Origin: an uncultured Gammaproteobacteria bacterium
Lineage (GTDB): Bacteria; Pseudomonadota; Gammaproteobacteria; UBA9214
Assembly (NCBI GenBank): GCA_963763115.1
Contig: CAVXNM010000026.1
Location: 7,055-71,054, forward strand
Length of the DNA: 64,000 bases
Direction of reading: 5' to 3'
Position numbers and translations under genes: made by a program. Positions 3,549 to 51,562 of this stretch are shown piece after piece (position 1 is the first letter of the stretch; each line of letters begins with the position of its first letter). The notes below the pieces were generated by a model that saw only the letters and a program-made list of their open reading frames with translations, was not told the origin of the DNA and did no database searches.

Positions 3549-3989
3549 TTACCATTTTTTATAGGGTAAAAACTTCCCGGACATGGTGATTCGTACCCGA
3601 TCACCTTTGGGATCCGGCTCTTTATCTACATCCATGGTGAAATCGATCGCGCTCATAATGCCATCACCAAATTTTTCATGGATTACGGCCTTCAAAGGTA
3701 TTCCATAAACCTGCATGATTTCATAGAAGCGATAAATGAGCGGGTCTGTAGGTACTACGGGACCCAGCCCTTTAGTGGGGCATTCGGTCAGCGCCTCAAT
3801 GACATCAGCGCCAAGGTTCAGAACAGCCGCCAGTTTCTCAGCTTCTTCTTTGGATGCACTTGCTTGACGGTAAAAAAGCGCCGCAATCCAGACTTCATCA
3901 CGGCCGACGGTCTTTTCAAGGTCTGTGAAGCTAAGACCTTTGAGTTTCTTGGCGGCCAAAAGCCTTTCGGTCACTTCCGTACTTTTCAT
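3549..3989 (-). CDS. cynS: cyanate hydratase (cyanase)
   Basis: 146 aa with full-length resemblance to CynS, e.g. [24 protein letters not shown] and the C-terminal DFTMDV...[18 protein letters not shown]. Confidence 0.9.
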
Positions 3990-4088
3990 GTCATCTCTCC
4001 TCTACATTCTGTCGCACCGGCAAGAAATTTGCCCCTTCCGCGAACAGAAATTGCCACAGGAATTATCAGCCTCTCTCATTCCCATTTA

Positions 4089-4301
4089 TCAACCATCCTT
4101 CTCGAGGCACAAGCCAAATTCAAACCTGTCAATTCTGATTCCTTCAGGAAATGCATCCTTCAGGCGTCGCTCAAACTCCTCGTATACTTCCGATTTATGT
4201 TGTTGTACGTCATAGTCGCGAGTTCCAGCACTGACACCTTCCAACTCCATGTCCATCTTGAACTCTACATCAGGAGCAATTTGAAAACGTATAGTGGCCA
4301 T
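4089..4301 (-). CDS. hypothetical small acidic protein
   Basis: 70-aa ORF with a GGAGG Shine-Dalgarno about 8 nt upstream of the ATG. No recognisable motif. Confidence 0.45.
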   Translation of the reverse strand: MATIRFQIAPDVEFKMDMELEGVSAGTRDYDVQQHKSEVYEEFERRLKDAFPEGIRIDRFEFGLCLEKDG

Positions 4302-4468
4302 AAAGAATTCCTCCTTCTCGTTCGAATAGCAGAAGAATTAGTGCGGATCATCAAAATCCTACTCAAAAATATAACTATAGCTCAACTGGATAGCAGCCCC
4401 ACCCAGATGTTTCCAAAGGCTTTTATGCAATTAATTGCATCAAGGGTAAGTTGACCTTGTTCGTCCCA

Positions 4469-4711
4469 GGTTTGGGTCCTGGCGGCCAGAATATCCTATA
4501 TTAATCATTACCTAATGGCATTGAGACCAGGGGATCGCAGTCCCTTGGTGTTAGCCATAGGAGGGCATCGGCAGATACCATGCGTTTCCCTGTATGGGCT
4601 CAGTTGGTCGTCAGATTTCATTGAGTCCACGTTAGGCTTTGCTCATGGTTGTGGTTGATTACTCGAACAGAGGGGCCGTATCAAGGTTCGAGTCCTAGTG
4701 GGTCCATCACC
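4469..4711 (+). repeat. tRNA T-arm-like module A: degenerate T-arm fragment (4469-4490), conserved hairpin (4515-4558), TAGGCTTTGC box, second T-arm/acceptor-like fragment (4682-4711)
   Basis: GGTTTGGGTCCTGGCGGCCAGA and CAAGGTTCGAGTCCTAGTGGGTCCATCACC bracket a unit homologous to 5726-5948 and 6596-6691. Confidence 0.7.
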
Positions 4712-5076
4712 TCAAAAAGGCCTGAGCTGTGTGGCCTCTCACCGCCACCTGAAAGTGGACTAGTCAAGGATGATACAGCTGTATCACTCCTAAACCGCCA
4801 GGAATCTGTCGCCAATTGCGAATAAATTAAGTTTTTTATTTCAGTAGGTTAACAAGTACAACAACTTTTGCGTTGTCAATCAGCGACACAATGCGCACAT
4901 TAATCTGACTTTTTGATGATATCGATGCAACCAGATCGACCTATGCCTATGTTTTATAACAGCTTTGAGACTATTGGCATACTTTTGCATATATAGCACA
5001 GCAACACAGGTAATTGCTTTTTTACAAAAGATAGTTCTTCGCACATCAAACGAAATCAATTGCTAGGAGAGATTAG

Positions 5077-5628
5077 ATGGATAAGTCAATGGTTACAGGT
5101 ATCGTGGTTGGTCTGGTTGCTGCCACTGCCGGTGGCTCGATTGCCGGCTATAAGATGCTCGCTAACAATGAACCTGCATATGCCGAGGTTCTCGATATCG
5201 AGGAAATCACAACCACTGTCCAGACACCGCGTGAAATCTGTGAGGATGTGCCTGTTACTCTGGAAAAACCGACCCAAGACCCAAATAGGGTCGTTGGTAC
5301 CGTTGCTGGTGCAGTATTAGGCGGGGTACTGGGTAACCAGATTGGTAGTGGCACCGGCAAGAAGATAGCCACTGTCGCTGGGGCTGCAGCCGGAGGTTAT
5401 GCTGGCAATAAGGTGCAGGAGAAAATGCAGTCCAACAACACCTACACCACAACAGAACGTCACTGCCACACTGTCAACGAAAACCAAGAAGAAGTGATCG
5501 GTTACAACGTCAGCTACCGCCTGGGAAATGAGAAGGGCAAAGTACGCATGGATGAAAAACCAAGTGATCGAATTCCGGTTGAAAACGGTCAGCTTGTGCT
5601 AAGCACCTTTGATGAGACCACACCATAA
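5077..5628 (+). CDS. glycine-zipper 2TM / 17-kDa-antigen-type outer membrane lipoprotein-like protein
   Basis: 183 aa. N-terminal TM segment and glycine-zipper segment GAVLGGVLGNQIGSGTGKKIATVAGAAAGGYAGNKV. AGGAGA Shine-Dalgarno before the ATG. Confidence 0.7.
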   Translation: MDKSMVTGIVVGLVAATAGGSIAGYKMLANNEPAYAEVLDIEEITTTVQTPREICEDVPVTLEKPTQDPNRVVGTVAGAVLGGVLGNQIGSGTGKKIATVAGAAAGGYAGNKVQEKMQSNNTYTTTERHCHTVNENQEEVIGYNVSYRLGNEKGKVRMDEKPSDRIPVENGQLVLSTFDETTP

Positions 5629-5725
5629 ACAGTAGTAACGGAAATTTGATCTGACAGTCACCAATTTTACAGGGGTTGCATTCAGGTCGAGTTCAATTCA
5701 CGAACTTTTCCACCTATGCAACACT

Positions 5726-5948
5726 GGGCGGTACGATTCAGTTGTCCGATCTGGTATCCCACTATTTGAGTTCGAGTCCTGGCGGGCCCACCACTTCCCA
5801 TAGAAATCATTAGCTTATGGCGCCGAGACCAAGGGATCGGAGTCCCCTGGTGTGATCCATAAAGGGATGTCCAGCGCCGAGCTCGGGCAGTCGATCTGCC
5901 ATCAGACACACAATTCCATCCATGCTAGGCTTTGCCCATGATTGTGGG
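5726..5948 (+). repeat. tRNA T-arm-like module B: decayed tRNA-like stretch ending GAGTTCGAGTCCTGGCGGGCCCACCA (5768-5793), conserved hairpin (5815-5862), TAGGCTTTGC box
   Basis: Alignable by eye to modules A and C. Only this copy keeps a CCA end. The upstream GGGCGGT...GATTCAGTTG looks like a decayed acceptor/D-arm. Confidence 0.7.
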
Positions 5949-6300
5949 CAGTTACACAAGCCGCGACTATTGGAAAGACATTATTCTCTAGCAGAAGCGG
6001 ACATTCACGTTGACCACGTATTACCTAGGCAAGTCATATATATCACGATGAGATATGGAATCTTGTGCTGTCACACTCCTTTTGTAACACGCAAAAGTCA
6101 GACCACTTGGTTGGGCCAGAATACATAGAGAAATTGATCGCACGAAACGAAAACATCATGGGCAGCAAACTGTGATGCACTTTCGTTGCCATCTGATCCC
6201 CAGATACATCGGCGACATGGATGATCCAAAAGGCGGTGTGAGAGGAGTCATACCTTCCAAGCAAGCGTATTGATAGTCTTCAATATTAGAGGTTATAACG

Positions 6301-6579
6301 ATGCACAGAATGCTATTGCTGTTCTTCCTCAGCATTGCGCTGGGCGGCTGTTCGGAAGAACAGCAGAACCGTCTGAGCCGTCTTGGGGTAACCTGGATGG
6401 AGGGCAATTATCGGGTAACCTACGCCGATGGAGCACATGTCAAAAGTTGGGAAGTGCACGACGGCAAGGTTACGTCCGAACCTGACAAAGGGTATTATTT
6501 CTTCTGGGCTAATGAAGGCAAAAAACGTTACTACGTGCAAACGCCGATTGCCAGGACATATATAGAGGAAATTCCATAA
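6301..6579 (+). CDS. hypothetical lipoprotein
   Basis: 92 aa. Signal peptide with lipobox MHRMLLLFFLSIALGGC. Confidence 0.6.
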   Translation: MHRMLLLFFLSIALGGCSEEQQNRLSRLGVTWMEGNYRVTYADGAHVKSWEVHDGKVTSEPDKGYYFFWANEGKKRYYVQTPIARTYIEEIP

Positions 6580-6595
6580 TTCAGAAACAGAACTC

Positions 6596-6691
6596 GGTAG
6601 TTCGAGTCTTGGCGGGCCTACTATCTATCATGCAAATCATAGCGTTATGGCATTGAGGACAGGGGATCGGAGTCCCTTGGTGCAATCCATA
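6596..6691 (+). repeat. tRNA T-arm-like module C: GGTAGTTCGAGTCTTGGCGGGCCTACTA + conserved hairpin (6645-6691)
   Basis: Starts 17 nt after the stop of the lipoprotein gene. Homologous to modules A and B. Confidence 0.7.
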
Positions 6692-6823
6692 GCGGGCTGG
6701 CCGGCTCGGGGCTTCGGGTGAGGGGCGCGGGGGGCACTCTCCTAGTAATCATTGGCCTTTCACCATCGTGTAATTTTTCACCGTTGAGCTTCCGATAGAC
6801 GAACGTGGATATGTAATTTTGCC

Positions 6824-6950
6824 CTCATAATGCTGGGGTCGGTGGTTCAAGTCCACCCGTAGCCACCATTTATTATCAGTTACTTATCAAGCCGGCCCTG
6901 TGCCGTTTTTTTGTTGAAAGTGCGGGGTAAGTGCGGAGGGTGGAGGAGGT
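6824..6950 (+). repeat. tRNA-Met 3'-half module, copy 2
   Basis: Identity starts in the anticodon loop (CTCATAA) and runs through CCA (6868), a short terminator hairpin + T7, and GTGCGGGGTAAGTGCGGAGGGTGG. Confidence 0.85.
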
Positions 6951-7007
6951 ATTAAAGCAAGAGTGCCACAAGATTAGCTATTAGGGTATGTACCCGAGCT
7001 GACACCC

Positions 7008-7765
7008 ATGCTCAAACAGCTTCGCCTGTCAGGGCTACTCGATAGCCTCGACGCACGTAATCGGGAGGCGATCGAGAAACACCTCACCTACCCAGAGTTT
7101 CTCGCTCTGGTCATTCAAGACGAAGCCGGGCGCCGTGAACAGAAGAAGTACGGTATGCGTCTGCGTCGTTCCGGTTTCCGCGGCGACAAGCTACTGGAAG
7201 GCTTCGACTTCGACTTTAATCCGGGCATCAACCAGCAACTCATCAACGAGCTCGCTCAGTGCCGGTTCATCGAAGAGAAAGTCTCCGTTCTGATCGCGCT
7301 GGCCCCTGTGGTACTGGCAAGAGCCATATCGCACAAGCCATTGGCCACTGCGCGGTTCGACTGGGCTACGATGTGATGTTCACCTCGCAGTCCAGCCTGC
7401 TCTCGCAGATCAATGCCGCTCGTGCTACTGGGGCCATCGAGCGCAAAATGCAGACACTGATCCGCATCCCGCTGATCATTATCGACGACTTCGGTCTCAA
7501 GCCGCTCAAGCCCGGTCAAGACGAAGACTTCCACGATCTCGTCGCCGAACGCTACGAGCGCACCGCGACCGTCATCACCAGCAATCTCGACTTCACTGAA
7601 TGGGGTGAGGCGTTCCCGAACAAACTACTCGGCGCCTCGACGCTCGATCGGCTTCGTCATGCGGCTTACCGACTGGTACTCGACGGAAAAAGCTATCGCA
7701 CGCCGCGTGGTGAAGCTGAAGCTGATAAATCAGTGGTTGCAAAGGCACCCAAAACCGCGAAATAA
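7008..7765 (+). pseudogene. istB: IS21-family helper ATPase IstB, frameshifted; no IstA present
   Basis: MLKQLRLSGLLDSL... continues after a frameshift near 7305-7312 with Walker A GPCGTGKSHIAQAIG and LIIIDDFG. Confidence 0.8.
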
Positions 7766-8353
7766 TTACCCCGTCTGAAGCGTCGAAATCGCGCTCCACC
7801 GTGGCGCCTTTAGGGCGAACATCGGTGGCTCCATTAGCTGATCAGTGACATGTTTCGCAGTCTCCTCATCCATGGTGTTTCCCGACGCTGCAGGCGGCTC
7901 GCCCTCTTCGCCCTCGCTTGTTCTCTTGGTTCTCCGCTTCGGCTTGGCGCTTTCCACCGCATCGATGACCGCTCCTTGAAATACATCAAGCACCGACTGA
8001 TCCATGCGCTTGCGGATCTCCACAAATAACGACGGCGCAAACGGTGCCTCCATCTGATACCCCGGCAGTCCCACGAAGTATTGCAGATACGGATTCTCTC
8101 GGATCTGCTCCACCGCCTCCTCATCTGACAGGCAGAGCTAGTGTTTAATGATGACCGCACCAATGACCAGCCGCGCATCTTTGGCGGGACGTCCTTCTCG
8201 CTCGGTGAGGCTTTGATAATAGCCTTCTGCCAGCTCATCCCAGGGAATGCACTGACTCATTTTTACCCAACGGTTGTTTTCATCCAGGGCGACCTGAAAC
8301 GGCCAGTCGAATTCGGCAAGGGAGAGTTGTTTCTGGCTGCGATATCGAATCAT
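7766..8353 (-). pseudogene. IS5/IS1182-type (DUF772 N-terminal domain) transposase fragment with an internal stop
   Basis: SLAEFDWPF...NRWVKMSQCIPWDELAEGYY then ENPYLQYFVGLPGYQ. An in-frame stop lies between the two ORFs. The C-terminal catalytic part is missing and abuts the IstB end. Confidence 0.6.
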
Positions 8354-8406
8354 AGGTGCACGCTTTCCAAATAGATTCCTTTATTTTCCGTGCACTATGC
8401 GGCCGT

Positions 8407-9478
8407 GAATTCAATTTGTAAGTGCAACTCTACATGACGGTAAGAGGGCAAGCTGCGTTAGCATTGTGGCTTATCTCACCGCCAAGCAAGAGGAGCACAC
8501 ATGAGAGGCTATACGCAGCTTACCCAAGAGGAACGATACCAAATTTACATCCTGAAGAAAGCAGAATACAGCCAGGCAGAGATTGCCGAGCTGCTGGATC
8601 GGGATAAATCGACCATCAGCCGGGAGCTGCGCCGAAATCGGGGCCTGAAGGGCTACCGGCCCCGGCAGGCCCATCATCTGGCGCTGCGGCGGCGTCACGA
8701 CAAGGCTCAGCCCCGGATAGGTGACAAGGTCTGGCAACTTGTCGAGACACTGATCCGAGAGGAGTGGAGTCCGGAGCAGGTTGTCGGCCGGGTCGAGATG
8801 GAACACGGGGTATCTATCAGCCATGAATGGATCTACCAGTACGTTTACGCAGACCAGCGCTCAGGAGGTGAGCTGTACCGTTTCCTGCGCTGTCAGAAGG
8901 TCCGGCGCAAACGCTATGGTGCCTATAGCCGACGCGGCTGCATTCCCAACCAGATCTCGATCGATGAACGCCCGGCCATTGTCGATAGCCGGCAGCGCTT
9001 CGGCGACTGGGAGGGTGATACCGTGATCGGTAAGGGTCATCGGGGCGCCCTGGTCACGTTGGTTGAGCGCAAGTCGCTGTATACGGTCATCCGGGCCGTC
9101 CTCAATAAGACGGCAGAGGCTGTCCGAGACGCTGTTGTGGACGGGCTTACCCCGTACATCGACTGGGTGCATACCATCACCTATGACAATGGCCGGGAAT
9201 TCACCGACCACGAAGGCATGGCCAGCGACCTTGATGCACGCATCTATTTCGCTCATCCTTATGCCTCCTGGGAGCGTGGACTGAACGAGAACACCAACGG
9301 ACTCATCCGACAGTACTTCCCGAAACACCGGGATCTGACGACTGTTACCAAGCATGAGATTGAAAAGGCCATGGATAAACTCAACCACCGTCCCAGAAAA
9401 TCGCTGGGCTTCCGGACACCTTTTGAAGTCTTCTTCAATACCAGGACTTCGCTAACCGTTGCACTTCAAAGTTGAATC
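8407..9478 (+). mobile_element. IS30-family insertion sequence, apparently intact
   Basis: Imperfect terminal inverted repeats GAATTCAATTTGTAAGTGCAAC (8407-8428) and GTTGCACTTCAAAGTTGAATC (9458-9478) flank a single 324-aa transposase ORF. Confidence 0.85.
8501..9475 (+). CDS. IS30-family transposase
   Basis: N-terminal HTH LTQEERYQIYILKK...STISRELRRN. DDE-type core with DWEGDTV and ITYDNGREF. Confidence 0.9.
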   Translation: MRGYTQLTQEERYQIYILKKAEYSQAEIAELLDRDKSTISRELRRNRGLKGYRPRQAHHLALRRRHDKAQPRIGDKVWQLVETLIREEWSPEQVVGRVEMEHGVSISHEWIYQYVYADQRSGGELYRFLRCQKVRRKRYGAYSRRGCIPNQISIDERPAIVDSRQRFGDWEGDTVIGKGHRGALVTLVERKSLYTVIRAVLNKTAEAVRDAVVDGLTPYIDWVHTITYDNGREFTDHEGMASDLDARIYFAHPYASWERGLNENTNGLIRQYFPKHRDLTTVTKHEIEKAMDKLNHRPRKSLGFRTPFEVFFNTRTSLTVALQS

Positions 9479-9566
9479 CGCGGCTTCTATTCGCTTTATA
9501 CGGCCTTATTATCAATTGGTTATAGTTTCTGAGCAGACTCTAATTAGGCAACAATAGTTAATCTAT

Positions 9567-10064
9567 ATGGTGTCACAGTCAAAGCAGAAACAAATCCTGG
9601 GACTTATCGGTTGGCTCGTTATGAGCTTTGTCGCTTCTGCTGTTGGGGCGGTAGCGTCAATCCAGGCCAAATCTTTCTACAGCCAGCTAGCCCAGCCCAC
9701 ATGGGCGCCGCCGTCTTCGCTTTTCGGGCCAGTTTGGACCGTGCTGTACGCCTTGATGGCTATCGCCGCATGGCTAGTCTGGCGATCGGGGGGATTCCAC
9801 GCCAATCGCATCGCGCTCTCGTTCTTTTTAGGGCAACTCGCATTGAACGCCTTATGGAGCTGGCTCTTCTTTGCCTGGCACCTCGGCGCGTTGTCATTTG
9901 CGGACATTGTGTTGCTTTGGGTCCTTATTGTTGCCACTCTCGTCTCTTTCTGGCGCGTGCGTCCTCTCGCTGGCGCTCTCCTCATTCCGTACTTGCTATG
10001 GGTCGGTTTCGCATCCGTACTCAACTACTCTGTATGGCAGCTCAATCCCCAGGTTCTAGGTTAG
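9567..10064 (+). CDS. tspO: TspO/MBR family tryptophan-rich sensory protein
   Basis: 165 aa, five TM segments. Motifs WAPPSSLFGPVWTVLYALMAIAAWLVW and NALWSWLFF. Confidence 0.85.
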   Translation: MVSQSKQKQILGLIGWLVMSFVASAVGAVASIQAKSFYSQLAQPTWAPPSSLFGPVWTVLYALMAIAAWLVWRSGGFHANRIALSFFLGQLALNALWSWLFFAWHLGALSFADIVLLWVLIVATLVSFWRVRPLAGALLIPYLLWVGFASVLNYSVWQLNPQVLG

Positions 10065-10120
10065 TGGCGTGCTGCCTAACAAACACATGCAGTCGGACGC
10101 GGCGATATGCCTATTAAGAA

Positions 10121-10713
10121 ATGAGCGATATAGCCAAAAAGAATCGATTCGATAGTCAAGGAAGGGCTGGCCCCTTTGCTGAAAAAGAAAGGCTTTAAAA
10201 AGAAAGCCAGAAATTTCTATCGAGGATATGACAATCGCATTGAACTTATAAATGTACAGGCGAGCAAATGGAACGAAGGAAATGAAGGCCAATTTACTGC
10301 GAACGTAGGAATTTACTATCCAGAAATTGCTGAAATAACAGATGCACTTCCTGTCAAGGGAATGCCAAAAGAATATGATTGTACTACTTAGAGAGCGAAT
10401 TGGTTTTCTTGCACCAAAAAAAGATGAGTGGTGGAAAATAGACAGTTCAACTAATGATTTTGAGGTTTCGGTGCATGTTGTAAAACAAGTCGAGGAGATG
10501 TGCCTTCCCTGGTTGGAGCACATGTCTAGCATGAATAATGTAAAAAGCTCTGTTGCTAAAAATAACAGAGCCTTTGTCGTTGCTGGCATGGCTTTATTTC
10601 AAAGCAATCGCGAAGAAGCGTCTATTTGCTTAGAGCAGGCACTTAAACAGCAACCTCTAGCTAAGGCTGGCATTATTGCCTGGGGTAAGAAACATGGTCT
10701 GGTTCAGGCATAA
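10121..10713 (+). pseudogene. DUF4304-like protein, multiply frameshifted (AT-richer insert)
   Basis: The segments ...LAPLLKKKGFKKKARNFYR..., ...GIYYPEIAEI... and ...WWKIDSS...LPWLEHMSS... lie in different frames. Confidence 0.4.
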
Positions 10714-10869
10714 CAACTCGCTCGTTGGGACGCTTCTCTTCCAGGCATGACTGGAAGTAGCTGCAATGCTACATTGCAGCGGTTTAACTGGAAAATACAC
10801 TCTCACCACATTCTGGTTAGCCGCCCCCGTGGTCGACTCCATGTAACCAATTCCGTAGTGGATTTTGCG

Positions 10870-11319
10870 ATGACGATACCAGAGCAACTGCAACAGAAGG
10901 TTCGGACCCTGCTGGATTCCCAGATTCAAGGGGTTCTGGCGACCCAGCATGACCAGCAACCCTACACCAGCCTGATGGCTTTTGCCGTCACACCCGACTT
11001 GCACTGGATTGTGTTCGCGACCTACCGGGCAACCCGGAAACACGCAAATTTGTTGGCGAATCCCCGTGTCTCCTTGCTGATCGACAATCGCACCAACGAG
11101 TCGATCGATTATCACGATGCCGTGGCCATCTCCGCACAGGGCACAGTCAGTGAGGTCGATGGGGTGCGGCGCGTCGAACTCTTGCAGCTCTATCTTCGCA
11201 AACATCCTGAACTGAGGGATTTCGTTACCGCCGCTGACTGTGTTCTGCTGAAACTCAAAGTCGAGTCCTACTACGTAGTCAGCCAATTCCAGAACGTCGT
11301 CGAGTTGCGGATGACATGA
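10870..11319 (+). CDS. pyridoxamine 5'-phosphate oxidase-like FMN-binding split-barrel protein
   Basis: LDSQIQGVLATQHDQQPYTSLMAFAV...NLLANPRVSLLID pattern. Start set at ATG 10870 rather than the upstream ORF start. Confidence 0.55.
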   Translation: MTIPEQLQQKVRTLLDSQIQGVLATQHDQQPYTSLMAFAVTPDLHWIVFATYRATRKHANLLANPRVSLLIDNRTNESIDYHDAVAISAQGTVSEVDGVRRVELLQLYLRKHPELRDFVTAADCVLLKLKVESYYVVSQFQNVVELRMT

Positions 11320-11499
11320 AGCCCGTCAGATTTTCGATCCGAATAGGCCGACGGGACGTTCGGCTACTGTGATGGCTGCTGAACTTGCACACGGTCTACC
11401 ACCACCGTCCGATCAGCCCCCGGTGACCAGTCGCTGTCGCACATGGATATCAGCGCGGCGCTTTCGTATGCACGGCGGCAGGCTGATGACTCATGGCGA

Positions 11500-11661
11500 T
11501 CATTTGCCTTTTCCCTTCAGGTACAGGACGCGAGCTACAATGAAGCACCCGAGTACCAGCAGGCCATACGGGTAGGGAATGTAGCCCAGAGAAAACCCCG
11601 TGACGCTTGCGGCGAGCAGAAGGGACAGCGTAATCAGGAGAGGGTCTGTTGTCTTGTTCAT
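11500..11661 (-). CDS. hypothetical small membrane protein (53 aa)
   Basis: MNKTTDPLLITLSLLLAASVTGFSLGYIPYPYGLLVLGCFIVARVLYLKGKGK: two hydrophobic segments. No other support. Confidence 0.3.
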   Translation of the reverse strand: MNKTTDPLLITLSLLLAASVTGFSLGYIPYPYGLLVLGCFIVARVLYLKGKGK

Positions 11662-12346
11662 GACGCGATCGTCAGGCACGGTCTGTGCCGTGAGATCTCC
11701 CGCCTCCCTTGAGGTGATTGCCGGTGCACCTCCCCGGCAGTGCGATGCCAAGGGATTTGACTTTTACGCGGCCATGTGGGGTCACAGAGGCAGCCAGTCA
11801 CCTCAGCGAACAGTCGCAGAGTTGAGGGTTTGACCGTCACCGCCAGAAAAAAACTCTGGGCATACGTGGAACCAAAAGCCGGCAGACTGCATCATGCGCC
11901 GCCGGTATTATCCCAGACGTCGGAGAGCACCGCGCGCAACCGCATACTATCCCCCAACGCCTCCAGTTTGCGCCGTGCCACTGCATTGCGCCTGCTTTGC
12001 GTCGCTCGCGAGGAACGGGGGTACCAAGATTGTACTGCCTTAAATGTGTCGACCTGACTCTCCAGGATGAGTTCACCTCCTGAGAATCCTGCCTTGCCGA
12101 TCAGCCGGCGCGTAATGGGTGTATCGTGATGAAGACGCCACACAGTGATTGGATTTAACCGTGTTTACAGGCCTCATCCCCAGGCAACAGGAAGTGGAGC
12201 CTAAACGCACAAACTCAACGAGTAGTCAACCCGGTCGAACCAGATGTGGTCGATCCTTATTGCACTGTTCGTGGTTGTTACCCGGGCGGACGGAAACCCC
12301 GTAATCCCGTCCGCCCGCATTGTCCACAAAGTGTCTAATTATTCGG

Positions 12347-12469
12347 TTAGAGTGCGATCACCGCTGCCGCACTCATCAGCAACAGCAAGGGGGTTGTCAA
12401 AAACCCTAATACTATCTTTGTGATAAGGAGATCTTCCCGGTTCATCGAATGCGTTGCAACGTGTCTCAT
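12347..12469 (-). CDS. candidate 40-aa hydrophobic micro-ORF divergent from the MerR gene
   Basis: MRHVATHSMNREDLLITKIVLGFLTTPLLLLMSAAAVIAL with a GAGGA-like Shine-Dalgarno. Below the ORF-track length cutoff. Confidence 0.25.
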   Translation of the reverse strand: MRHVATHSMNREDLLITKIVLGFLTTPLLLLMSAAAVIAL

Positions 12470-12534
12470 GGCGAAGTCCTCAGTGTTGGTGGAGCACCAG
12501 GATATCTGGTGTTGTCTAGGACAATAGTGGTCAA

Positions 12535-12566
12535 TTGAGAAGTTGTCAAGGTTTTGTATAATACAA
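12535..12566 (+). promoter_or_regulatory. putative sigma70 promoter with an overlapping 13-bp palindrome upstream of the MerR gene
   Basis: TTGAGA, 16 nt, TATAAT. The perfect palindrome TTGTATAATACAA (12554-12566) spans the -10 element. Confidence 0.35.
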
Positions 12567-12636
12567 TTGTTAATTTCATCGTCTCCGCTATGAAATTATT
12601 CCCGACTGCCCTCGGCCATACTGACTGGAAACCGCC

Positions 12637-13611
12637 ATGAATGAACCAATCGAGAATAGTTCAATCCGTTACCGCATAGGTGCCGTGGCAAGACTCACCG
12701 GGATTTCTCCGGATGCGCTGCGTATCTGGGAGCGACGCTATGCGGCCGTTTCGCCGCAGCGGTCACCCCAGGGCGGGCGGCTCTACAGCGCCGGAGACAT
12801 GGAACGACTGCGCCTGATGAAGCAGTTGGTGGATGCCGGTGACGCCATCGGCGAGGTCGCGGGCCTCGACACCGAGACGTTAGAGGACCGGCTGAAAGCG
12901 GCGCGCCGCCTACCGCTCCGGAATGCACCCACGCAGAGGTCCCCCTGTCGGGTGGCTGTCGTGGGCGAAGCACTGGCCGACACGCTGCGAGTGGCTGGCG
13001 ATACCCCGGCCGGCATCACACTGGTGGCCAGTTACCGGGATGTCACCGACTACGAGGCCCGCGGCAGCGACGCCGAAGCCGACGTGCTGGTGATCGAACA
13101 GGCGACGCTGCACGGGGATATCGCCGCCCGCATGGTCGACTGGCTGATCCGTGCAAAGGCAGCGCATGCAGTGGTGGTGTACCGCTACGCCTCCCGGGAG
13201 ACACTCGCGCAACTGCCCGCTTCGACGTGTTCGGCCCTGTGCGCTCCAGTGGATCCGTGCACACTGCAGACGCATTGCCTGGCGATGTGGCACGCAGGTC
13301 AGCCAGCCCCCGAAGCGGCAAGCCCAGGGAGCGCAGGGTTCACCCTGCCCGCGCCATCGCGGCGCTACGACGATGAGGCGCTGGCGACACTGTCCTCGCT
13401 GTCATCTACCGTCAAGTGCGCATGTCCGCGCCACCTTGCTGAACTGATTACCAGCCTTTCCGCGTTCGAGCGCTACAGTATGGAGTGTGAAAGCCGCAGT
13501 CCCCGAGACGCTGCGCTGCATGCCTATTTGCATACCACCACGTCGCATGCGCGGCACATGATCGAAGAGGCGCTAGGTCATGTGATCGAGATGGAGAACA
13601 TTAAAATCTGA
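12637..13611 (+). CDS. MerR-family transcriptional regulator with a long C-terminal extension
   Basis: N-terminal MerR HTH YRIGAVARLTGISPDALRIWERRY. Central Rossmann/receiver-like segment. C-terminal Cys/His-containing segment KCACPRHLAELITSLSAFERYSMEC. Confidence 0.75.
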   Translation: MNEPIENSSIRYRIGAVARLTGISPDALRIWERRYAAVSPQRSPQGGRLYSAGDMERLRLMKQLVDAGDAIGEVAGLDTETLEDRLKAARRLPLRNAPTQRSPCRVAVVGEALADTLRVAGDTPAGITLVASYRDVTDYEARGSDAEADVLVIEQATLHGDIAARMVDWLIRAKAAHAVVVYRYASRETLAQLPASTCSALCAPVDPCTLQTHCLAMWHAGQPAPEAASPGSAGFTLPAPSRRYDDEALATLSSLSSTVKCACPRHLAELITSLSAFERYSMECESRSPRDAALHAYLHTTTSHARHMIEEALGHVIEMENIKI

Positions 13612-13724
13612 CGCCTGAATAGCCAGGAGAGAACGAAATGAGGTCTCGACCGGCCCGCCGGGCCAGGAGGTGAAGTCCGCAGGCTTCCGCAGAAACCCCC
13701 GCAGCTACGCGGGACTCTGCAATG

Positions 13725-13755
13725 AAAAAGGCCAACCGAGAGTGGTTGGCCTTTA
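13725..13755. terminator. bidirectional intrinsic terminator
   Basis: AAAAA-GGCCAACC-gagagt-GGTTGGCC-TTTAT: an 8-bp GC-rich stem flanked by an A-run and a T-run. Confidence 0.6.
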
Positions 13756-14201
13756 TGAATTGGTGGTGGGGCGGCAGCGGACACCAAACAGACCTATATC
13801 AACGCGTTAGGAGCAGTGCAAACTGCTGCGGAAAGTTGTGGAATCGAGTCGTAGCCGTTCGAATTCGTTGCAGATTTACCCTCCGACAGTGTCTGTGAAC
13901 AATTTACGGATCTAGCTCGGGTCTGATTTCGGAGGGTGGAATCGAACCGGCGTCCGCTTAAGCGTGCTGGCGGCCGAAGCGTGCCGGCATCCATGGCACT
14001 GTCTGGATGCCCAAAAGTCGTATTTGACCATCGGTTTGGATTTGGTAGGGGAAAGGCATCTGCCTGACGCTTAGTGGATCTGTTGTTACCAAGCTCTATA
14101 GGCAGCGCATCTGTCCGCCAGGCATACTTGACTTTATTCTTCTTGTTAACGCGTTCAAGTACGAGGTCGCCCGTCTGCACTACCTTAACAAGTTCGCCGG
14201 G

Positions 14202-14486
14202 TTGGGTGAGTTGAAAGAGGTTGTGTTCCGCGCGGGGTCCGTAGGGGAGATTGCGCAGGAACATGAACAGCGCATTGATGCGCAACTCCGGGATATCTAT
14301 ACGGATCTGGTCGATGAAGTGGGGCGCTCGGCCTCATTGATCAGACAGATTGCCGACAGCCTGGTGGAGGAGCAGATACTCGATGCGCACGATATCGAAA
14401 GGCTCGTGCAGTGTCTGACTTTCTGTCGCAGCATGAACTGGATGAACCGATCGTTATTAATCTACAAGCTATGCCGCATGCCGTGA
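14202..14486 (+). CDS. hypothetical acidic helical protein (TTG start); overlaps the next ORF by 76 nt and may be one frameshifted gene with it
   Basis: ...IAQEHEQRIDAQLRDIYTDLVDEVGRSASLIRQIADSLVEEQILDAHDIERLVQ: protein-like composition. No ATG start. Confidence 0.3.
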   Translation: MGELKEVVFRAGSVGEIAQEHEQRIDAQLRDIYTDLVDEVGRSASLIRQIADSLVEEQILDAHDIERLVQCLTFCRSMNWMNRSLLIYKLCRMP

Positions 14487-14635
14487 TGAATCCTCACGAA
14501 CTCTTTCATACAATGCACAGGGTAAATCGCCAGGTACTGCATGTCGACGAGCTTGCAAATGATGACCTGAAGGCCATAAGCAACAACAAATCGCCTGCCG
14601 ACCATGCGCAATACAATGACGAACTCGATGATTGA
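14411..14635 (+). CDS. hypothetical acidic small protein (GTG start); stop overlaps the start of the ART gene
   Basis: 74 aa. C-terminus ...HAQYNDELDD. The stop TGA overlaps the TTG start of the downstream ORF (TTGA). Confidence 0.35.
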   Translation: MSDFLSQHELDEPIVINLQAMPHAVMNPHELFHTMHRVNRQVLHVDELANDDLKAISNNKSPADHAQYNDELDD

Positions 14636-15312
14636 ACGCGCAGCCATTCCACGACATCATGCGTCGCAAACCGAAACATAAGCAACCTGCGCCAGGAGTA
14701 CCTGCATTGCGGCCGGCCAGGTTGGCGGCCTGTTACTACCACGGCACTGATGAGCAATATGCCTGGTCGATCATGACGCACGGCTTCACCCTGGCGAACG
14801 AGCGCTGGGGGCGAGGCTGGGGTAATGGCGTCTACCTGAGTGGTACCGATGACTTCGCTTCGACCTGGGGGCGGATCATTATCCGCTGTCAACTCCAGGC
14901 AGGCACCCGCTTGCTATGGCACGAGGACTATGATTACAAGGTCATCGATTCCCTGCGCAGGGAGTTCGGCAAAGACATCGTATCGCCGACGTTCTGGATG
15001 GTCATGCCGCATAACAAGCAGTTCACCCGCATTGAGGTAACCCAGCTCTGGCACTATCTCGTCGCCCGTTTCTACGAAAGCCCGCGCCGCTTTCGGGCCG
15101 GCAGATTCGAATGCCTGCAGAAAAACTATTCACGCATCTACGAGCAGTTAAGGCGGCATGGCTACGACGCTGTCGGATTCCGTGACACTGACTGGCCCGA
15201 ATTGCTGGTATTCAATCCCGCGCGAGTACAACCGCTATCCGCCCATCGCTGGAGCCAGATAACCCACCGCCTGGGCGCGCCGATTCCCGTATGGCGTTTG
15301 AAGTCGATGTAA
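14632..15312 (+). CDS. PARP-like (H-Y-E type) ADP-ribosyltransferase-fold protein
   Basis: YYHGTDEQYAWSIMTHGF (His strand), GNGVYLSGTDDFASTWG (Tyr strand), IIIRCQLQAG, and DAVGFRDTDWPELLVFNPARVQP (Glu strand). Start is TTG 14632 or ATG 14659. Confidence 0.6.
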   Translation: MNAQPFHDIMRRKPKHKQPAPGVPALRPARLAACYYHGTDEQYAWSIMTHGFTLANERWGRGWGNGVYLSGTDDFASTWGRIIIRCQLQAGTRLLWHEDYDYKVIDSLRREFGKDIVSPTFWMVMPHNKQFTRIEVTQLWHYLVARFYESPRRFRAGRFECLQKNYSRIYEQLRRHGYDAVGFRDTDWPELLVFNPARVQPLSAHRWSQITHRLGAPIPVWRLKSM

Positions 15313-15325
15313 AAGGGTGTTGTGT

Positions 15326-15386
15326 AAAAGGGTTCGGAGCACATTTACTGCTAATATCAGGGATAAATGTGCTCCGACACCCTTTT
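15326..15386. terminator. long bidirectional terminator hairpin between the convergent ART and P450 genes
   Basis: AAAAGGGT-TCGGAGCACATTTA-(16-nt loop)-TAAATGTGCTCCGA-c-ACCCTTTT: about 22 bp of pairing with an A-run and T-run on the flanks. Confidence 0.7.
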
Positions 15387-16627
15387 CACACGTGCAGGCG
15401 TACCGGCAGGCTCCGCAGTCCGCGCATCACCAGCCCGGGTGTCCATCGCAGCCGTTCGACCGGCTGGTCGAGGCGCAGCTCTGGAAACCGCCTTGACAGC
15501 TCGACGAGGGCAATCTCGCCCTCGGCCCGCGCCAGCGCGGCTCCCACGCAAAAGTGTATCCCGTAGCCAAATGCCAGGTGATTTGCTGATCTGCCGCGCG
15601 TGATGTCGAATATGTGCGCGTCTTCGAAGTAACGCGGATCGCGGTTGGCAGCCGCCAGCCCGACGAAGACCATGTCGCCCTCGTGGATACAATTGTCATC
15701 GAACGTGATATCCGCCGTTGCGTAGCGTGCCGTGGACACCTCGAGCGGACTCTCGAATCGCAGTATTTCCTCGACCGCCGCCGCCGCACGTCCTGCATCG
15801 GCACAGAGTGCCTGCCATTGCGCAGGGTTTCTGAGCAATGCCAGCAGCCCGTTGCCAATGAGATTTGCAGTCGTTTCATGTCCGGCCATGATCAGCAGGA
15901 ACGCCATGGAAACCAGCTCTTCTTCAGAGAGTTCCTTGCGACCGTGCGCGGCCACTAATGCACTGAACAGCGAATCGTCGGGGCTTGAGCGTTTCATGTC
16001 GGCGACCCCCAGCAGGTATTCGTGCAGTTCCCCGGCGATCAGCGGTACACGCTCCGCGGCGCCGAGGTCGGCAGATGCCAGTCGTGCCGACCAGTGCTGT
16101 ACACGTGGTACGTCCGCCGCGGTAATGCCCATCAGCTCGCAAATTACCATGAGGGGAAGCGGGAGGGCGAAGGTCTGCACGAGGTCCGTTGTGCCGCTGG
16201 AGGCGAAAGCATCGATCAGTTGCACGGTAGTCTCCCGGATTCGAGGGCGCATGCGGTTGATGCGGGTCGAGGTGAGTTCCCTTGCAATGATTGCGCGCAG
16301 ACGGGTGTGTTCCGGAGGGTCTATCGTGAGCAGGTGGTGAAACAGCGGGTGCACGGTTCCCTGTTGACTGCAGGCATCCGGATCCTGCCTGCTGGCATGG
16401 CTCTTCGCGCGGTCCTTGGACAGGCGCGGGTCATTCAGCAATGCACGTGCCGGGGAGCAATCTGTTACCAGCCAGGTTTGCACACCGGTCGGCAAGCGCA
16501 CCGGAATGATCGAGCGGCCCTGTTTGCGCAAACTGTCGTAGAGCGGGTAAGGGTTTGCCTTGAACGCCTGGTCCATGATCGGAAGATCGATGTGTTCCGG
16601 ACAATTTGTCAGGTCAGAGGGTTCCAT
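15386..16627 (-). CDS. cytochrome P450
   Basis: 413 aa. Heme-binding loop FGYGIHFCVGAALARAE, EILRFESP (ExxR) and the I-helix LLIMAGHETTANLI. Confidence 0.9.
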   Translation of the reverse strand: MEPSDLTNCPEHIDLPIMDQAFKANPYPLYDSLRKQGRSIIPVRLPTGVQTWLVTDCSPARALLNDPRLSKDRAKSHASRQDPDACSQQGTVHPLFHHLLTIDPPEHTRLRAIIARELTSTRINRMRPRIRETTVQLIDAFASSGTTDLVQTFALPLPLMVICELMGITAADVPRVQHWSARLASADLGAAERVPLIAGELHEYLLGVADMKRSSPDDSLFSALVAAHGRKELSEEELVSMAFLLIMAGHETTANLIGNGLLALLRNPAQWQALCADAGRAAAAVEEILRFESPLEVSTARYATADITFDDNCIHEGDMVFVGLAAANRDPRYFEDAHIFDITRGRSANHLAFGYGIHFCVGAALARAEGEIALVELSRRFPELRLDQPVERLRWTPGLVMRGLRSLPVRLHV

Positions 16628-16812
16628 GTAGAGTCAATCAGCAATATCAGTCAATCGGTTGTCAAGTAAACCCGGACAGGGCAGGACGGGATGATGAAAA
16701 CAGCATACAGCCAGTGTTGCGGGCATGCCAGCGATTGCCGGCTGCCCTTGACCCTCCGCTTTCACCTGTCGCGCGGCGCGGTCGATACCTTCCAGATTGC
16801 GGGTATCACTGC

Positions 16813-17883
16813 ATGAACCTTTCCCGCAGCGGACCGGAATTTCCCGAGTGCACGGGGCTATGGCAGACGCCGGAATGGTTCCCGATGAACCTCTTGCCCC
16901 GAGAAAACAAAATGGTACTCGTGCCCGTATCGGAACTGCTCTACCGGGAGGTCAATTTCCTGGACGACAGGGAATTACCGGTGGACGGTCTCATCGAGCT
17001 GCCACTGGACCGGGTAATCCGAATGTCGGCACGAATCCGCGCGCCACACACACCGGTACACTGCATCTATCACATTGCGTTCTGTGGATCGACGCTCATC
17101 GCGCGCTGCCTTGATCAGCTTACGGGAACGCTGGTTCTCAAGGAGCCGCTGTCCTTTCACGAGATGGCCTGCCAGAAGCGCCTTGCAGCTTCTTCTGCAC
17201 AGGAATGTGCGCTATGGCGCAGGTCATTCGACCTGCTCATGACGCTGCTGGGTCGTACTTTCCGTACCGACCAGGCCGTGATCGTCAAGCCGACGGATGC
17301 TTCAACCAACCTGATCGGAGACGTGCTGGCGCGTAACGAGGAGTCACGGGCCATTTTCCTTTATGTCGGACTCGAAGAGTTCCTCATCGCGATGCTGCCT
17401 GATGAAACCAGGATGGGGTTCGTGATAGACCGGCTTGCGGAGCTGGGTGTACATTTCCCCGGCAAGCCGCTGTTCAGCGAGCAGGGTTGGCGCAAGCTGA
17501 CGTCGCCGGAGCAGGCTGCATGTCTGTGGTTTCTGCACATGTCGCTGTATGCCAGCATCATGGCAATGAACCCCGAAGCCGGGTGTCGGGCCCTCGACCT
17601 CAACCGGTTTCTTCAGGAGCCTGAACATACCCTCGTCTCGTTGGCCAGGTTCTTTGAGATCCCCGTAACGTTGCAACAGGCCAGGCATGCCATCACTGCA
17701 AGCCTGGGTCTGCATTCCAAGGATCAGAAGCTTGCCTACTCGGCCCGACAACGAGCCAGCAGCCAACGCGAGATTGCGCGCAGATATCGCAGCGAGATCC
17801 GCCTGGGTCAGCGCTGGGCCGCACGCCGGCTCGAGCAGGAGGGCCTGCCGGAGACCCCGCCACTGCCACTGGGAGTCATTTGA
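16813..17883 (+). CDS. hypothetical protein, possibly sulfotransferase-like
   Basis: 356 aa from ATG 16813, divergent from the P450 across 185 bp. HIAFCGSTLIARCLDQLTG resembles the PAPS 5'-phosphosulfate loop (xxSGSTLL) of Stf0-type sulfotransferases. The functional call is weak. Confidence 0.5.
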   Translation: MNLSRSGPEFPECTGLWQTPEWFPMNLLPRENKMVLVPVSELLYREVNFLDDRELPVDGLIELPLDRVIRMSARIRAPHTPVHCIYHIAFCGSTLIARCLDQLTGTLVLKEPLSFHEMACQKRLAASSAQECALWRRSFDLLMTLLGRTFRTDQAVIVKPTDASTNLIGDVLARNEESRAIFLYVGLEEFLIAMLPDETRMGFVIDRLAELGVHFPGKPLFSEQGWRKLTSPEQAACLWFLHMSLYASIMAMNPEAGCRALDLNRFLQEPEHTLVSLARFFEIPVTLQQARHAITASLGLHSKDQKLAYSARQRASSQREIARRYRSEIRLGQRWAARRLEQEGLPETPPLPLGVI

Positions 17884-18256
17884 CAAGCATCTGGTTTCAC
17901 GCTAAATAACTGCAGAATTATCAGTATGTTGGCTAATTAATCGAGGCGGTGCGCTGTTTTCGTGTAGTCCTGACTCTGCCGGGTGGGCTACCGGGGCCGT
18001 ACGTCGGCATTGACTATGTCTGGAAGCATTCCGTTAACCGTACGCACCGTGCATCGATACGCGGTTGATCTCGTCCTGGCGGCTGTGATAAATAACTATT
18101 GCATGGCGTGATAATACGGCTAGCTTCTTATCGGGATACCGGATTATTACTACAAGGCAAGTATCGGGGGGCTCGTACACGTCCGGTAACATGCTTCCGC
18201 CATGTACGGCAGTGTTACGCAGGTTTGTTACACAGATCAAAGAGGAGATTTGAAAA

Positions 18257-18481
18257 ATGCAAACAGCACATGATCTGGTACGTTTAAAGGTTGATGCATT
18301 GCGTTCGGCGATGGCTGCAAGGGAAGTCAACCAGGGGCAGGCAATCAAGGCGCTGGCTGATATCGCCGCATGCGAATCACCTGTGGATCGTTCAATCAGT
18401 AATCCTGACATGCATCGCGGTGACGCGTTGCATATGTGCCCATGGCATACCTGTCAAGCAACTCGTCACATCAATTCCTGA
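18257..18481 (+). CDS. candidate lanthipeptide precursor peptide (LanA)
   Basis: 74 aa. GAGGAG Shine-Dalgarno 8-9 nt before the ATG. Lies directly upstream of the synthetase. The C-terminal part AACESPVDRSISNPDMHRGDALHMCPWHTCQATRHINS has 3 Cys and 6 Ser/Thr. Confidence 0.6.
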   Translation: MQTAHDLVRLKVDALRSAMAAREVNQGQAIKALADIAACESPVDRSISNPDMHRGDALHMCPWHTCQATRHINS

Positions 18482-18522
18482 TAGTTCCCATACCCGCGAA
18501 TTGTGTGTAACGGCGTTTTGAA

Positions 18523-18550
18523 CGCGGCAGAGGCTTACTCTGCCGCGTTT
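18523..18550 (+). promoter_or_regulatory. intercistronic attenuator/terminator hairpin between precursor and synthetase
   Basis: CGCGGCAGAG-gctta-CTCTGCCGCG: a perfect 10-bp stem with a 5-nt loop, followed by TTT. Confidence 0.6.
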
Positions 18551-18556
18551 ACATGT

Positions 18557-21115: not shown

Positions 21116-21196
21116 GGTTACGGCTATCCATCTGCAACAATGACGGGTCGGGCAACGGGCAGTCAGCGCTGGCATAACGAGGCAACCAGCTGAAGG

Positions 21197-22099
21197 ATGC
21201 GAGACCATGCAGTGGTGGCCGGTGTGGAACAGTTGACACTCAAGTTTCGTGAGCTGGGCGTGGTTTGCGCGCGCGGCGCGTTGGATCGCAAGGCACAGGA
21301 GCTAGCCAGTCATGCCTATGGTTGGACGCTCGAGCATCCTGGCCCCGGCGCAAGGGATGTGCTGGCCGGGATGGCGGGCGCGTTCTTCCAGGATCATGCC
21401 AACCCGCAGGCCTTCCCGATCTACCGGCCCCTGCTGTGCGATACTGGACTTGGGGAGCTTGTCGCCGCGATCATGGGCAGCGCAAATCTCTGGTTCCTGT
21501 ACGAACAGATCTGGTTAAAGGAGGGTGGCGAGACCTTGCCAACACCATGGCACCAGGATCTGCCCTACATGCCCATGACAGGGGACCATTTGGCCACGAT
21601 ATGGATCAACCTGGATCCGGTGCCCAGCGAGCGTGCGCTGGAGTTCGTAGTCGGCTCACACTTGGGCCCGTTGTACAATCCCACGTCGTTCAATCCACGG
21701 GATCCACGCGACACGATGTTTTCCGACAACGCATGGCCACCCTTGCCGGATATCGAGGCCACACGTAATGCCTGGCCGATCCGGTCCTGGGATACCTGTC
21801 CTGCCGATGTGCTGGTCTTTCACCCGGCTATTCTGCACGGGGGCGCGCCGACGCGTGCCGGCACCAGGCGCAGATCGATTTCGTTGCGCGTATTTGGGGA
21901 CGAGGCATACTGTGCCGAGCGTCCGGAGGAAGGGCTTGCACGGATCGACCGGCTTAAATGTGACAGCAGGATGCGCGATCCAATCGAAGAGATGGCCCAC
22001 AGGGAGCCGGGCACGCTGTTTCGTCACCCGGGTTTTCCACAGCTTGTCCTGGGCAAGGCCGGCGCAACGGCCATGTCACAGCGGCAGCCCGGAGAGTGA
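21197..22099 (+). CDS. phytanoyl-CoA dioxygenase (PhyH) family Fe(II)/2-oxoglutarate oxygenase
   Basis: 300 aa. WHQDLPY (HxD), VLVFHPAILHGG (distal His) and RRSISLRVFG. Confidence 0.75.
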   Translation: MRDHAVVAGVEQLTLKFRELGVVCARGALDRKAQELASHAYGWTLEHPGPGARDVLAGMAGAFFQDHANPQAFPIYRPLLCDTGLGELVAAIMGSANLWFLYEQIWLKEGGETLPTPWHQDLPYMPMTGDHLATIWINLDPVPSERALEFVVGSHLGPLYNPTSFNPRDPRDTMFSDNAWPPLPDIEATRNAWPIRSWDTCPADVLVFHPAILHGGAPTRAGTRRRSISLRVFGDEAYCAERPEEGLARIDRLKCDSRMRDPIEEMAHREPGTLFRHPGFPQLVLGKAGATAMSQRQPGE

Positions 22100-25220: not shown

Positions 25221-25265
25221 CTCATAATGCTGGGGTCGGTGGTTCAAGTCCACCCGTAGCCACCA
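25221..25265 (+). repeat. tRNA-Met 3'-half module, copy 3 (downstream part only weakly conserved)
   Basis: CTCATAATGCTGGGGTCGGTGGTTCAAGTCCACCCGTAGCCACCA, identical to the other copies from the anticodon loop to CCA. Confidence 0.85.
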
Positions 25266-51445: not shown

Positions 51446-51562
51446 TAATGCTGGGGTCGGTGGTTCAAGTCCACCCGTAGCCACCATTCATATTCAGCGA
51501 CTTATGTAACCGGTCCTGTGCCGGTTTTTTCGTTGGAAGTGTGGGGTAAGTATGAAGGGTCT
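51446..51562 (+). repeat. tRNA-Met 3'-half module, copy 4
   Basis: TAATGCTGGGG...CGTAGCCACCA, terminator AACCGGTCCTGTGCCGGTTTTTT, then GTGTGGGGTAAGTATGAAGGGT. Confidence 0.85.

Follow-up and report, generated by a model that had tools for sequence, protein, structure and literature searches.

What are the repeated tRNA-like modules that alternate with single small genes in the genome of an uncultured gammaproteobacterium? The window analysed in this study is a stretch of 64,000 nucleotides, C26:7055-71054, from a 4.02-Mb draft genome of 93 contigs that is 88% complete (C-labels stand for contigs of this draft, G-labels for related genomes, and L-labels for extracted loci or contigs; plain positions are those of the window). 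Three homologous modules were identified by reading the window from 3600 to 7800 and by a repeat finder, at 4455-4562 (A), 5770-5864 (B), and 6600-6692 (C), as an earlier note made from the letters alone, the sequence-only reading, had claimed. Each module consists of the 3' part of a tRNA gene with a CAU anticodon, tRNA(CAU), a spacer of about 35 nt, and a conserved inverted repeat, the hairpin (HP). It is very probable that the modules are junction scars, i.e. hybrid attL/attR sites, which small elements left as they integrated site-specifically and in succession into a single tRNA(CAU) gene, probably tRNA-Ile2.

When the well-kept copies were aligned with their flanks, the tRNA part extended from the anticodon loop (cTCATAAtcccttggtcccaGGTTCGAG..., cTCATAAtcccttggtcccaGGTTCGAGTCCtggcgggcccACCA) to CCA. 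With its start in the anticodon loop instead of the T-loop, this part represents the 3' half of the gene. The sequence-only reading had let the modules begin with a T-loop/acceptor string; a T-arm/acceptor string is indeed present in each of the three, and in some copies, B and C among them, the identity is found from the T-loop onward only, but the true start in well-kept copies lies at the anticodon loop. The identity block opens with cTCATAA in most copies and with GGTTCGAG in copies B and C and in one arm family. Overall, the fragments start at a crossover subsite, either the anticodon loop or the T region, and reach the 3' end of the gene. In module A the fragment is decayed (CCTTGttcGTCCCAGGTTtGgGTCCTGGCGG..CCAgaa; 4455-4491, plus strand), as seen from an alignment with 14 genomic copies and the full tRNA; in module B it runs from T-loop to CCA and is identical to the gene over 24 nt (5770-5793, plus strand); and in module C the acceptor end is decayed, with CTA replacing CCA (6600-6623, plus strand). 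The earlier remark that CCA is kept only in copy B is correct. The HP follows on the plus strand at 4511-4562 in module A (repeat family D1, inverted pair I1), at 5813-5864 in module B, and, together with the end of the spacer, at 6635-6692 in module C. Its inner part is a 9-6-9 inverted repeat, located at 4526-4549 in A (ACCAGGGGA-TCGCAG-TCCCTTGGT), at 5828-5851 in B, where it contains an A.C mismatch, and at 6658-6681 in C. An imperfect hairpin had been predicted about 20 nt after each fragment; it is present in each module, at a spacing of about 35 nt.

In related genomes, the full tRNA gene is identical to the well-kept fragments over the shared part, and its anticodon was assigned as CAT by ARAGORN. 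Because its best match in Escherichia coli is an annotated tRNA-Ile, with 84% identity over the full length, tRNA(CAU) is probably tRNA-Ile2. The intact gene is located directly after dnaG-rpoD in five relatives (G022, G014, G001, G018, and G023), and in four of them (G022, G023, G001, and G018) an HP is found on its 3' side. The 454-kb contig of G022 carries the intact tRNA with its HP, followed by fragments with HP 9, 14, and 15.5 kb downstream in the same orientation. G014 provides the empty site, where the tRNA after rpoD has an unrelated downstream flank and no HP. Synteny between G014, G022, and G001 is kept up to the tRNA and lost beyond it. A tRNA at the head of the array and a loss of synteny after it are the mark that repeated integration into a regenerated tRNA target leaves behind. 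Its principle, like that of the displaced tRNA 3' fragment, has been described (PMC4383910), and an account for islands that contain partial tRNAs and degenerate remnants has been given as well (10.1101/2020.12.28.424599). As a separate observation, the genes after the most similar E. coli tRNA-Ile (NZ_CP027457.1 3064804-3064879, L186) are island-like and include a recombinase pseudogene fragment and ypjA.

One integrase-bearing element is found between two such repeats. On L181, a metagenome contig of 75 kb, a module is followed by 1.6 kb, the P4-type integrase P0008, about 10 kb, and a second module; the element spans 12.9 kb (8277-21236, ENA contig_15729). The two module repeats that bound it share, with about 96% identity, a block of 118 nt that opens at the anticodon loop and closes with the HP; past the HP they are unrelated. 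Both are preceded by the same arm family. P0008 has 423 aa with Arm-DNA-bind_3 and Phage_integrase domains and is 85% identical to its homologue on L156, where five modules are followed by a P4-type integrase with Arm-DNA-bind_3, SAM-like, and catalytic domains. Genes with Amidase_3, MreB, and RodZ-like domains also lie in the L181 element, which is odd. Two parts of the window resemble elements of this kind. The arm after module C (6693-6743, plus strand) is of the type found 3' of the left repeat of the L181 element, and the window from 6600 to 6743 has 78.5% identity to L181 8298-8446. The start of an element after module B (5865-5990, plus strand) was recognised by its likeness to L106; the window from 5770 to 5990 is 82.5% identical to L106 2557-2335, which there runs into a C-terminal integrase fragment. 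On the other side of the tRNA part, the upstream-arm family that precedes both L181 repeats spans about 230 nt of non-coding sequence, in which TTCGG motifs recur and an IHF-like AACAATnAGTTA box is present, a layout of the kind found in attP arms. Conserved "proteins" upstream of some modules were rejected, as they are one non-coding arm read in several frames.

The probable origin of the arrays can be described as follows. The attP of a circular element would contain an upstream arm, the tRNA 3' half from anticodon loop to CCA, the spacer of about 35 nt, and the HP, and a P4-type tyrosine integrase would perform the crossover in the tRNA part. The copy brought by the element would restore the tRNA gene, while the old 3' half would be displaced downstream, and repeated rounds would lead to the order tRNA - HP - cargo - arm - fragment - HP - cargo and so on. 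The HP would be carried along as the conserved first part of the downstream arm, most likely as a core-type protein-binding site at the DNA level and as an occasional second insertion site. In the genome studied here, integrase genes would have been lost or not assembled, and deletions would have cut the elements down to one small cargo gene each. The array may thus be mostly a fossil that could still be reshuffled by homologous recombination between its repeats of about 100 bp. The model also predicts fragments without HP, as scars that keep the original or another type of downstream flank. The second T-arm/acceptor fragment of tRNA(CAU) that closes module A (4685-4709, plus strand), with a different flank as the sequence-only reading had noticed, lacks an HP. 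Elsewhere in the genome, the tRNA(CAU) fragments at C49:57616-57639, C9:9572-9595, and C89:15595-15618 are followed by AACAATAAGTTA and two ATGTAGGCA/ATGTAAGCA repeats without HP, a different downstream-arm type at the same tRNA target, and a partial integrase lies 3 kb from the fragment on C49.

BLAST and pattern scans of the draft genome detected 17 tRNA(CAU) fragments, 12 of them with HP. They form clusters, co-oriented within each contig, on C26, C9, C7, and C24; C49 and C89 have one fragment each, in both cases lacking an HP. At least five scars lie within 11 kb. Module copies within one genome are 70-85% alike. The module is present in 17 of the 41 related genomes; apart from one weak match these belong to one gammaproteobacterial family, in which the module-bearing genomes are spread over five of the six genera. 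The exact module pattern matched 13 contigs of metagenome-assembled genomes (MAGs) of uncultured Gammaproteobacteria, one of them labelled Ectothiorhodospiraceae, as well as more than 120 metagenome contigs, and had no match in IMG/VR. With these counts among genomic fragments, relatives, and metagenome contigs, the modules are far beyond chance.

Several observations weigh against repeated integration into the tRNA gene as the origin of the modules. Neither rpoD nor an intact tRNA(CAU) was found in the draft assembly, so that the head of the array is not seen in this genome; ARAGORN detected no tRNA at all in the window, and in the draft genome as a whole neither a tmRNA nor a tRNA-Met/Ile(CAU), and a loose pattern search of the genome for the tRNA 5' half gave only noise. 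The gene and rpoD are likely missing from the draft because repeats break the assembly. Profile searches for tyrosine recombinases (PF00589) on the array contigs of 11 genomes gave no match on any of them, and serine recombinases were not found in three of the five genomes searched for them (this genome, G002, and G023), which excludes them as the general agent. The metagenome array contigs, 520 kb in total, yielded only five integrase pieces. Among the 17 genomes with modules, close relatives of P0008 were found in only two, in one case with a stop codon, and none was found in this genome; therefore, the arrays in the window are best regarded as orphan scars. The upstream arms belong to at least six unrelated families, as opposed to the uniform HP, which a single element family would not predict, and some cargo genes abut the tRNA fragment, leaving no room for an arm. 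Since integrases were found only within the element on L181 and where the L156 array ends, the units in the window are remnants and not islands in the sense of Islander. On the side of the integration model, fragmented integrases and scattered partial tRNAs in islands have been interpreted as remnants of older integrations (10.1101/2020.12.28.424599).

The HP, which lies beyond the end of the tRNA, calls for an explanation of its own. Copies differ in the 6-nt centre but hardly at all in the arms. Where the centre reads TCATAG, the HP agrees with the anticodon arm and variable loop of tRNA(CAU) at almost every base (CAGGGGA-TCATAGTCCCTTGGT against CAGGGGACTCATAATCCCTTGGT). When alignment scores were compared with 3000 shuffles and with other tRNAs, this match scored 34, the best shuffle 27, and other tRNAs at most 19; the HP of module A reached 27, a score attained by none of its 3000 shuffles. 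By this likeness, the HP is a degenerate copy of the anticodon arm of the same tRNA. A further module is joined inside the HP loop at four loci (L025 of G024, L079, L161, and L129). We infer that the HP may be a core-type site copy within a long att identity block and sometimes a secondary target. Another case of a join at the HP is seen at C9:17711-17926 (minus strand), where a fragment of a tyrosine integrase catalytic domain is fused to the 3' half of an HP (TGGTGTATCCATAGAGGGCTGTCCGGCTCGGGG), with the breakpoint at the HP centre. Other identities of the HP were rejected: alignments to the T-arm/acceptor end of other tRNAs, or to an arm like that of tRNA-Leu, did not exceed the scores expected by chance among tRNAs; a coding start (MALRPGDRSPLV...) is contradicted by indels that break the frame between copies; and no resemblance to a dif/Xer-type site was seen in a comparison by eye with the consensus.

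Between the modules, the expected single small genes were found, one of 183 aa and one of 92 aa. AT-rich promoters, which had been ascribed to them, were not borne out, as a consensus scan gave two sites where 3.7 were expected. The 183-aa gene (5077-5628, plus strand) encodes a protein with a glycine-zipper 2TM domain (Pfam PF05433, 2.8e-11) and has a paralogue at C25:84967-85515 that is 71% identical. The 92-aa gene (6301-6579), which encodes a lipoprotein-like protein with no family match, forms a cargo cassette at 6296-6599 (plus strand) in which fragment C begins 20 nt past the stop codon. Gene and module together are 91% identical in nucleotides and 94.6% in protein to a locus on contig C410 of G003 (L032 2796-3194); homology between the two loci sets in at the ribosome-binding site and extends into the module, and the upstream DNA differs. 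On the other side of module A, cynS, coding for a cyanate lyase of 146 aa (3549-3989, minus strand; Pfam PF02560, 5.7e-38), recurs alone on the array contigs L031, L042, L138, and L156 with 84-86% identity, and the homology ends at the gene ends; it is thus a stand-alone cargo of arrays in several genomes and metagenome contigs. A cassette block at 4083-4454 (plus strand) joins a 70-aa acidic open reading frame (ORF) (4089-4301, minus strand), without Pfam or PHROG family, to the upstream (P-type) arm that leads into module A; it is 79-88% identical to blocks on L118, L123, L154, and L179. On L118, L154, and L179, the ORF and the arm block lie inside a fragment-to-fragment unit of about 735 nt that is bounded by two modules with HP and whose neighbours are partly different. 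Overall, this comparison shows that the cassettes reshuffle modularly, and the source of the reshuffling could be site-specific recombination or homologous recombination between the repeats.

A different reading of such reshuffling is a system of integron-like, tRNA-anchored cassettes without integrase, carrying one or two genes each, in which a recombinase encoded elsewhere would insert and excise the cassettes singly and the HP would be the true crossover or landing site, renewed with each cassette. It would agree with the absence of integrases from the arrays of 11 of the 11 genomes searched, with the very small units (0.73-1.3 kb from fragment to fragment), and with the occurrence of the same cassette block beside different neighbours. 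The near-invariant arms around a variable 6-nt centre are like those of recombinase core sites, and in several HP copies a break or an insert lies precisely at the centre. In addition, in the orthologous pair formed by the 92-aa gene and its G003 counterpart, the HP is kept to 84% as compared with 62% for the tRNA fragment and spacer, as judged by eye. However, this is a single pair, and no candidate trans-acting recombinase tracks the modules; the integrase family of L181 was found in only two of the 17 module-bearing genomes. The 70-85% likeness of copies within a genome points to old rather than recent turnover, most junctions consist of arm plus tRNA fragment and not of half an HP, and the same shuffling is possible by homologous recombination between repeats. 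Such a cassette system is thus distinctly unlikely. The hairpin as a recombination site, one of the options of the sequence-only reading, survives only as this minority view. It is also conceivable, though doubtful, that the HP is a working anticodon-arm decoy, a spare recombination site in each element at which a recombinase acting in trans could insert, nest, and excise single-gene cassettes. If true, the HP decoy would constitute a tRNA-anchored, integron-analogous cassette platform that is widespread in uncultured sediment and soil Gammaproteobacteria.

Another explanation takes the HP as a transcribed RNA in the 3' trailer of the tRNA, active in processing or stability, which elements would carry to keep the probably single-copy tRNA-Ile2 working. 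The HP always stands at a fixed distance of about 35 nt after the restored tRNA, in a second scar family this position is taken by a clear terminator-like hairpin that has a T run, and copies A and C form stable folds on the strand of the tRNA (-28.9 kcal/mol with z -4.9, and -26.3 kcal/mol with z -3.9). Covariation, which had been claimed for the hairpin, is nevertheless absent. In a test on 51 HP copies with a hand-set structure and 500 shuffles, 86% of the pairs were formed, yet the covariation score of 0.175 did not exceed the shuffled mean of 0.178, and 289 of the 500 shuffles were equal to or above it. The pair cited in support of covariation is A-U in 18 copies, G-U in 16, G-C in 7, and an A.C mismatch in 10; therefore, the arms change independently. 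The RNAalifold consensus is weak and mis-registered, at only -1.7 kcal/mol, and copy B folds better on the opposite strand (z -2.3) than on the plus strand (z -1.0). Therefore, in view of the missing covariation, the weak consensus, and the strand preference of copy B, the HP behaves as a conserved DNA palindrome and not as an RNA selected for pairing. Furthermore, no U tract follows the HP, the empty-site genome G014 has none, and Rfam offers no family for it: there was no match at gathering thresholds, and the one relevant match with E-values up to 10 was a sub-threshold tRNA match of 27 bits on a scar of the tRNA-Met type. A trailer RNA is therefore improbable, and the structured RNA that the sequence-only reading had listed beside a recombination site finds no support in these results. 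A tRNA-derived repeat akin to a miniature inverted-repeat transposable element or a short interspersed nuclear element, spread by transposition or retroposition as that reading had also considered, would be multi-copy, short, and non-coding with a tRNA-like start as the modules are, but it is extremely improbable, since the alignment of copies with flanks has no terminal inverted repeats or target-site duplications, the copies are confined to a few clusters and co-oriented within each, an intact tRNA heads the arrays in relatives, the exact pattern is absent from IMG/VR, and dispersed copies at unrelated chromosomal sites with target duplications were not found.

Integration into the tRNA gene was the first of the possibilities raised by the sequence-only reading, and it is supported and right in substance, with the tRNA at the head of the array, the empty site, the integrase between repeats, and the attP-like arms on its side; the identity block, however, usually begins in the anticodon loop and not in the T-loop. 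Taken as a whole, the sequence-only reading is partly supported.

The box common to modules A and B, noted earlier, was confirmed at 4626-4654 (plus strand; repeat family D6) and 5919-5947, the latter within the element start after module B. It is part of a conserved stretch of about 110 nt 3' of the HP in one element type and is also present on L097, L106, L112, and L173; it was rejected as an ORF start because the frame is not kept. A scar of a second family lies at 6807-6950 (plus strand). Here an upstream arm leads into the 3' half, anticodon loop onward, of an elongator-type tRNA-Met (6824-6868); then come a terminator-like hairpin, which is conserved and has a T run, and two copies of the AAGTGCGG repeat. 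A frameshifted IstB gene is located 3' of the tRNA half. This is the tRNA-Met module that was correctly described as closing the array. Scars of this type occur in the window at 1106-1130, 6844-6868, 25241-25265, and 51462-51486; the genome holds eight copies with the same downstream arm, five of them on C26, with further copies on C24 and C42. At 1054-1130 of the window, a tRNA-Arg(CCG)-like 5' half and a tRNA-Met 3' half are joined at the anticodon loop into a chimeric pseudo-tRNA. The reciprocal product, a tRNA-Met-type arm with a tRNA-Arg 3' half that ARAGORN calls tRNA-Arg, lies 3.1 kb upstream at C26:4966-5046. The order of the parts fits the insertion of a small circle with a tRNA-Arg-like site into a tRNA-Met scar. 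GC content varies between 46 and 64% along the 84-kb contig C26, and the whole contig looks like a mosaic island.

A puzzling repeat family can thus be explained by numerous integrations, of which the repeats are the record, at a single tRNA-Ile(CAU) gene situated downstream of rpoD. In one family of uncultured Gammaproteobacteria, this gene would be the seed of a hypervariable island that gathers small secreted or membrane proteins and genes such as that of cyanase. The anticodon-arm look-alike within the 118-bp att repeat may bear on how P4-type integrases choose or multiply their sites. On the practical side, the repeated fragments break MAG assemblies and create pseudo-tRNAs that gene finders can miscall.

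Among known systems, the genomic islands catalogued by Islander restore the tRNA gene that they split, and the displaced 3' fragment marks the end of the island; the crossover sites are in the T region or have the anticodon loop as their centre, and tandems arise by reuse of the regenerated site (PMC4383910). The present arrays share with these islands an integrase with Arm-DNA-bind_3 between two repeats on L181, an intact tRNA with downstream co-oriented 3' fragments in G022, G023, G001, and G018, and an unoccupied target site in G014. However, among 3919 islands only four tandems of three or more were found, and each member had its own integrase (PMC4383910), whereas here 17 scars occur in one genome, at least five within 11 kb, with no integrase. 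Also unlike Islander islands, the repeated block has 118 nt, reaches 40-80 nt beyond the tRNA end, and contains the second, degenerate copy of the anticodon arm.

The tycheposon islands of Prochlorococcus are another close parallel. They are seeded by tRNAs, a partial tRNA alone may separate neighbours, newer elements push older ones inward, the cargo is small and adaptive, and one target tRNA has the anticodon CAT (10.1101/2020.12.28.424599). The arrays are similar in the tRNA seed, the partial-tRNA junctions, the degenerate remnants, the small cargo, and the CAT anticodon of the target. They differ from tycheposons in the host, which here is a group of uncultured sediment and soil Gammaproteobacteria, and in the integrase, which is P4-like with an arm-binding domain. 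No recombinase of the tycheposon clade and no replication or packaging genes of tycheposons were seen among the recurrent array ORFs, although no search was aimed at them, and the HP has no counterpart among the tycheposon features described in the passages considered (10.1101/2020.12.28.424599).

As in integron arrays, small genes that are poor in promoters stand singly in the order gene - repeat - gene - repeat, and every junction has an imperfect hairpin of about 50 nt. Unlike integrons, the arrays are headed by dnaG-rpoD-tRNA with no intI or other integrase nearby, their repeats start with a tRNA fragment, and the intact tRNA takes the place of attI; the GTTRRRY / RYYYAAC core pair of attC was not seen in a comparison by eye with the consensus. 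Overall, tandem accretion at a tRNA gene is a known route of island building, which is realised here in a dense and integrase-free form with an anticodon-arm look-alike in the att repeat.

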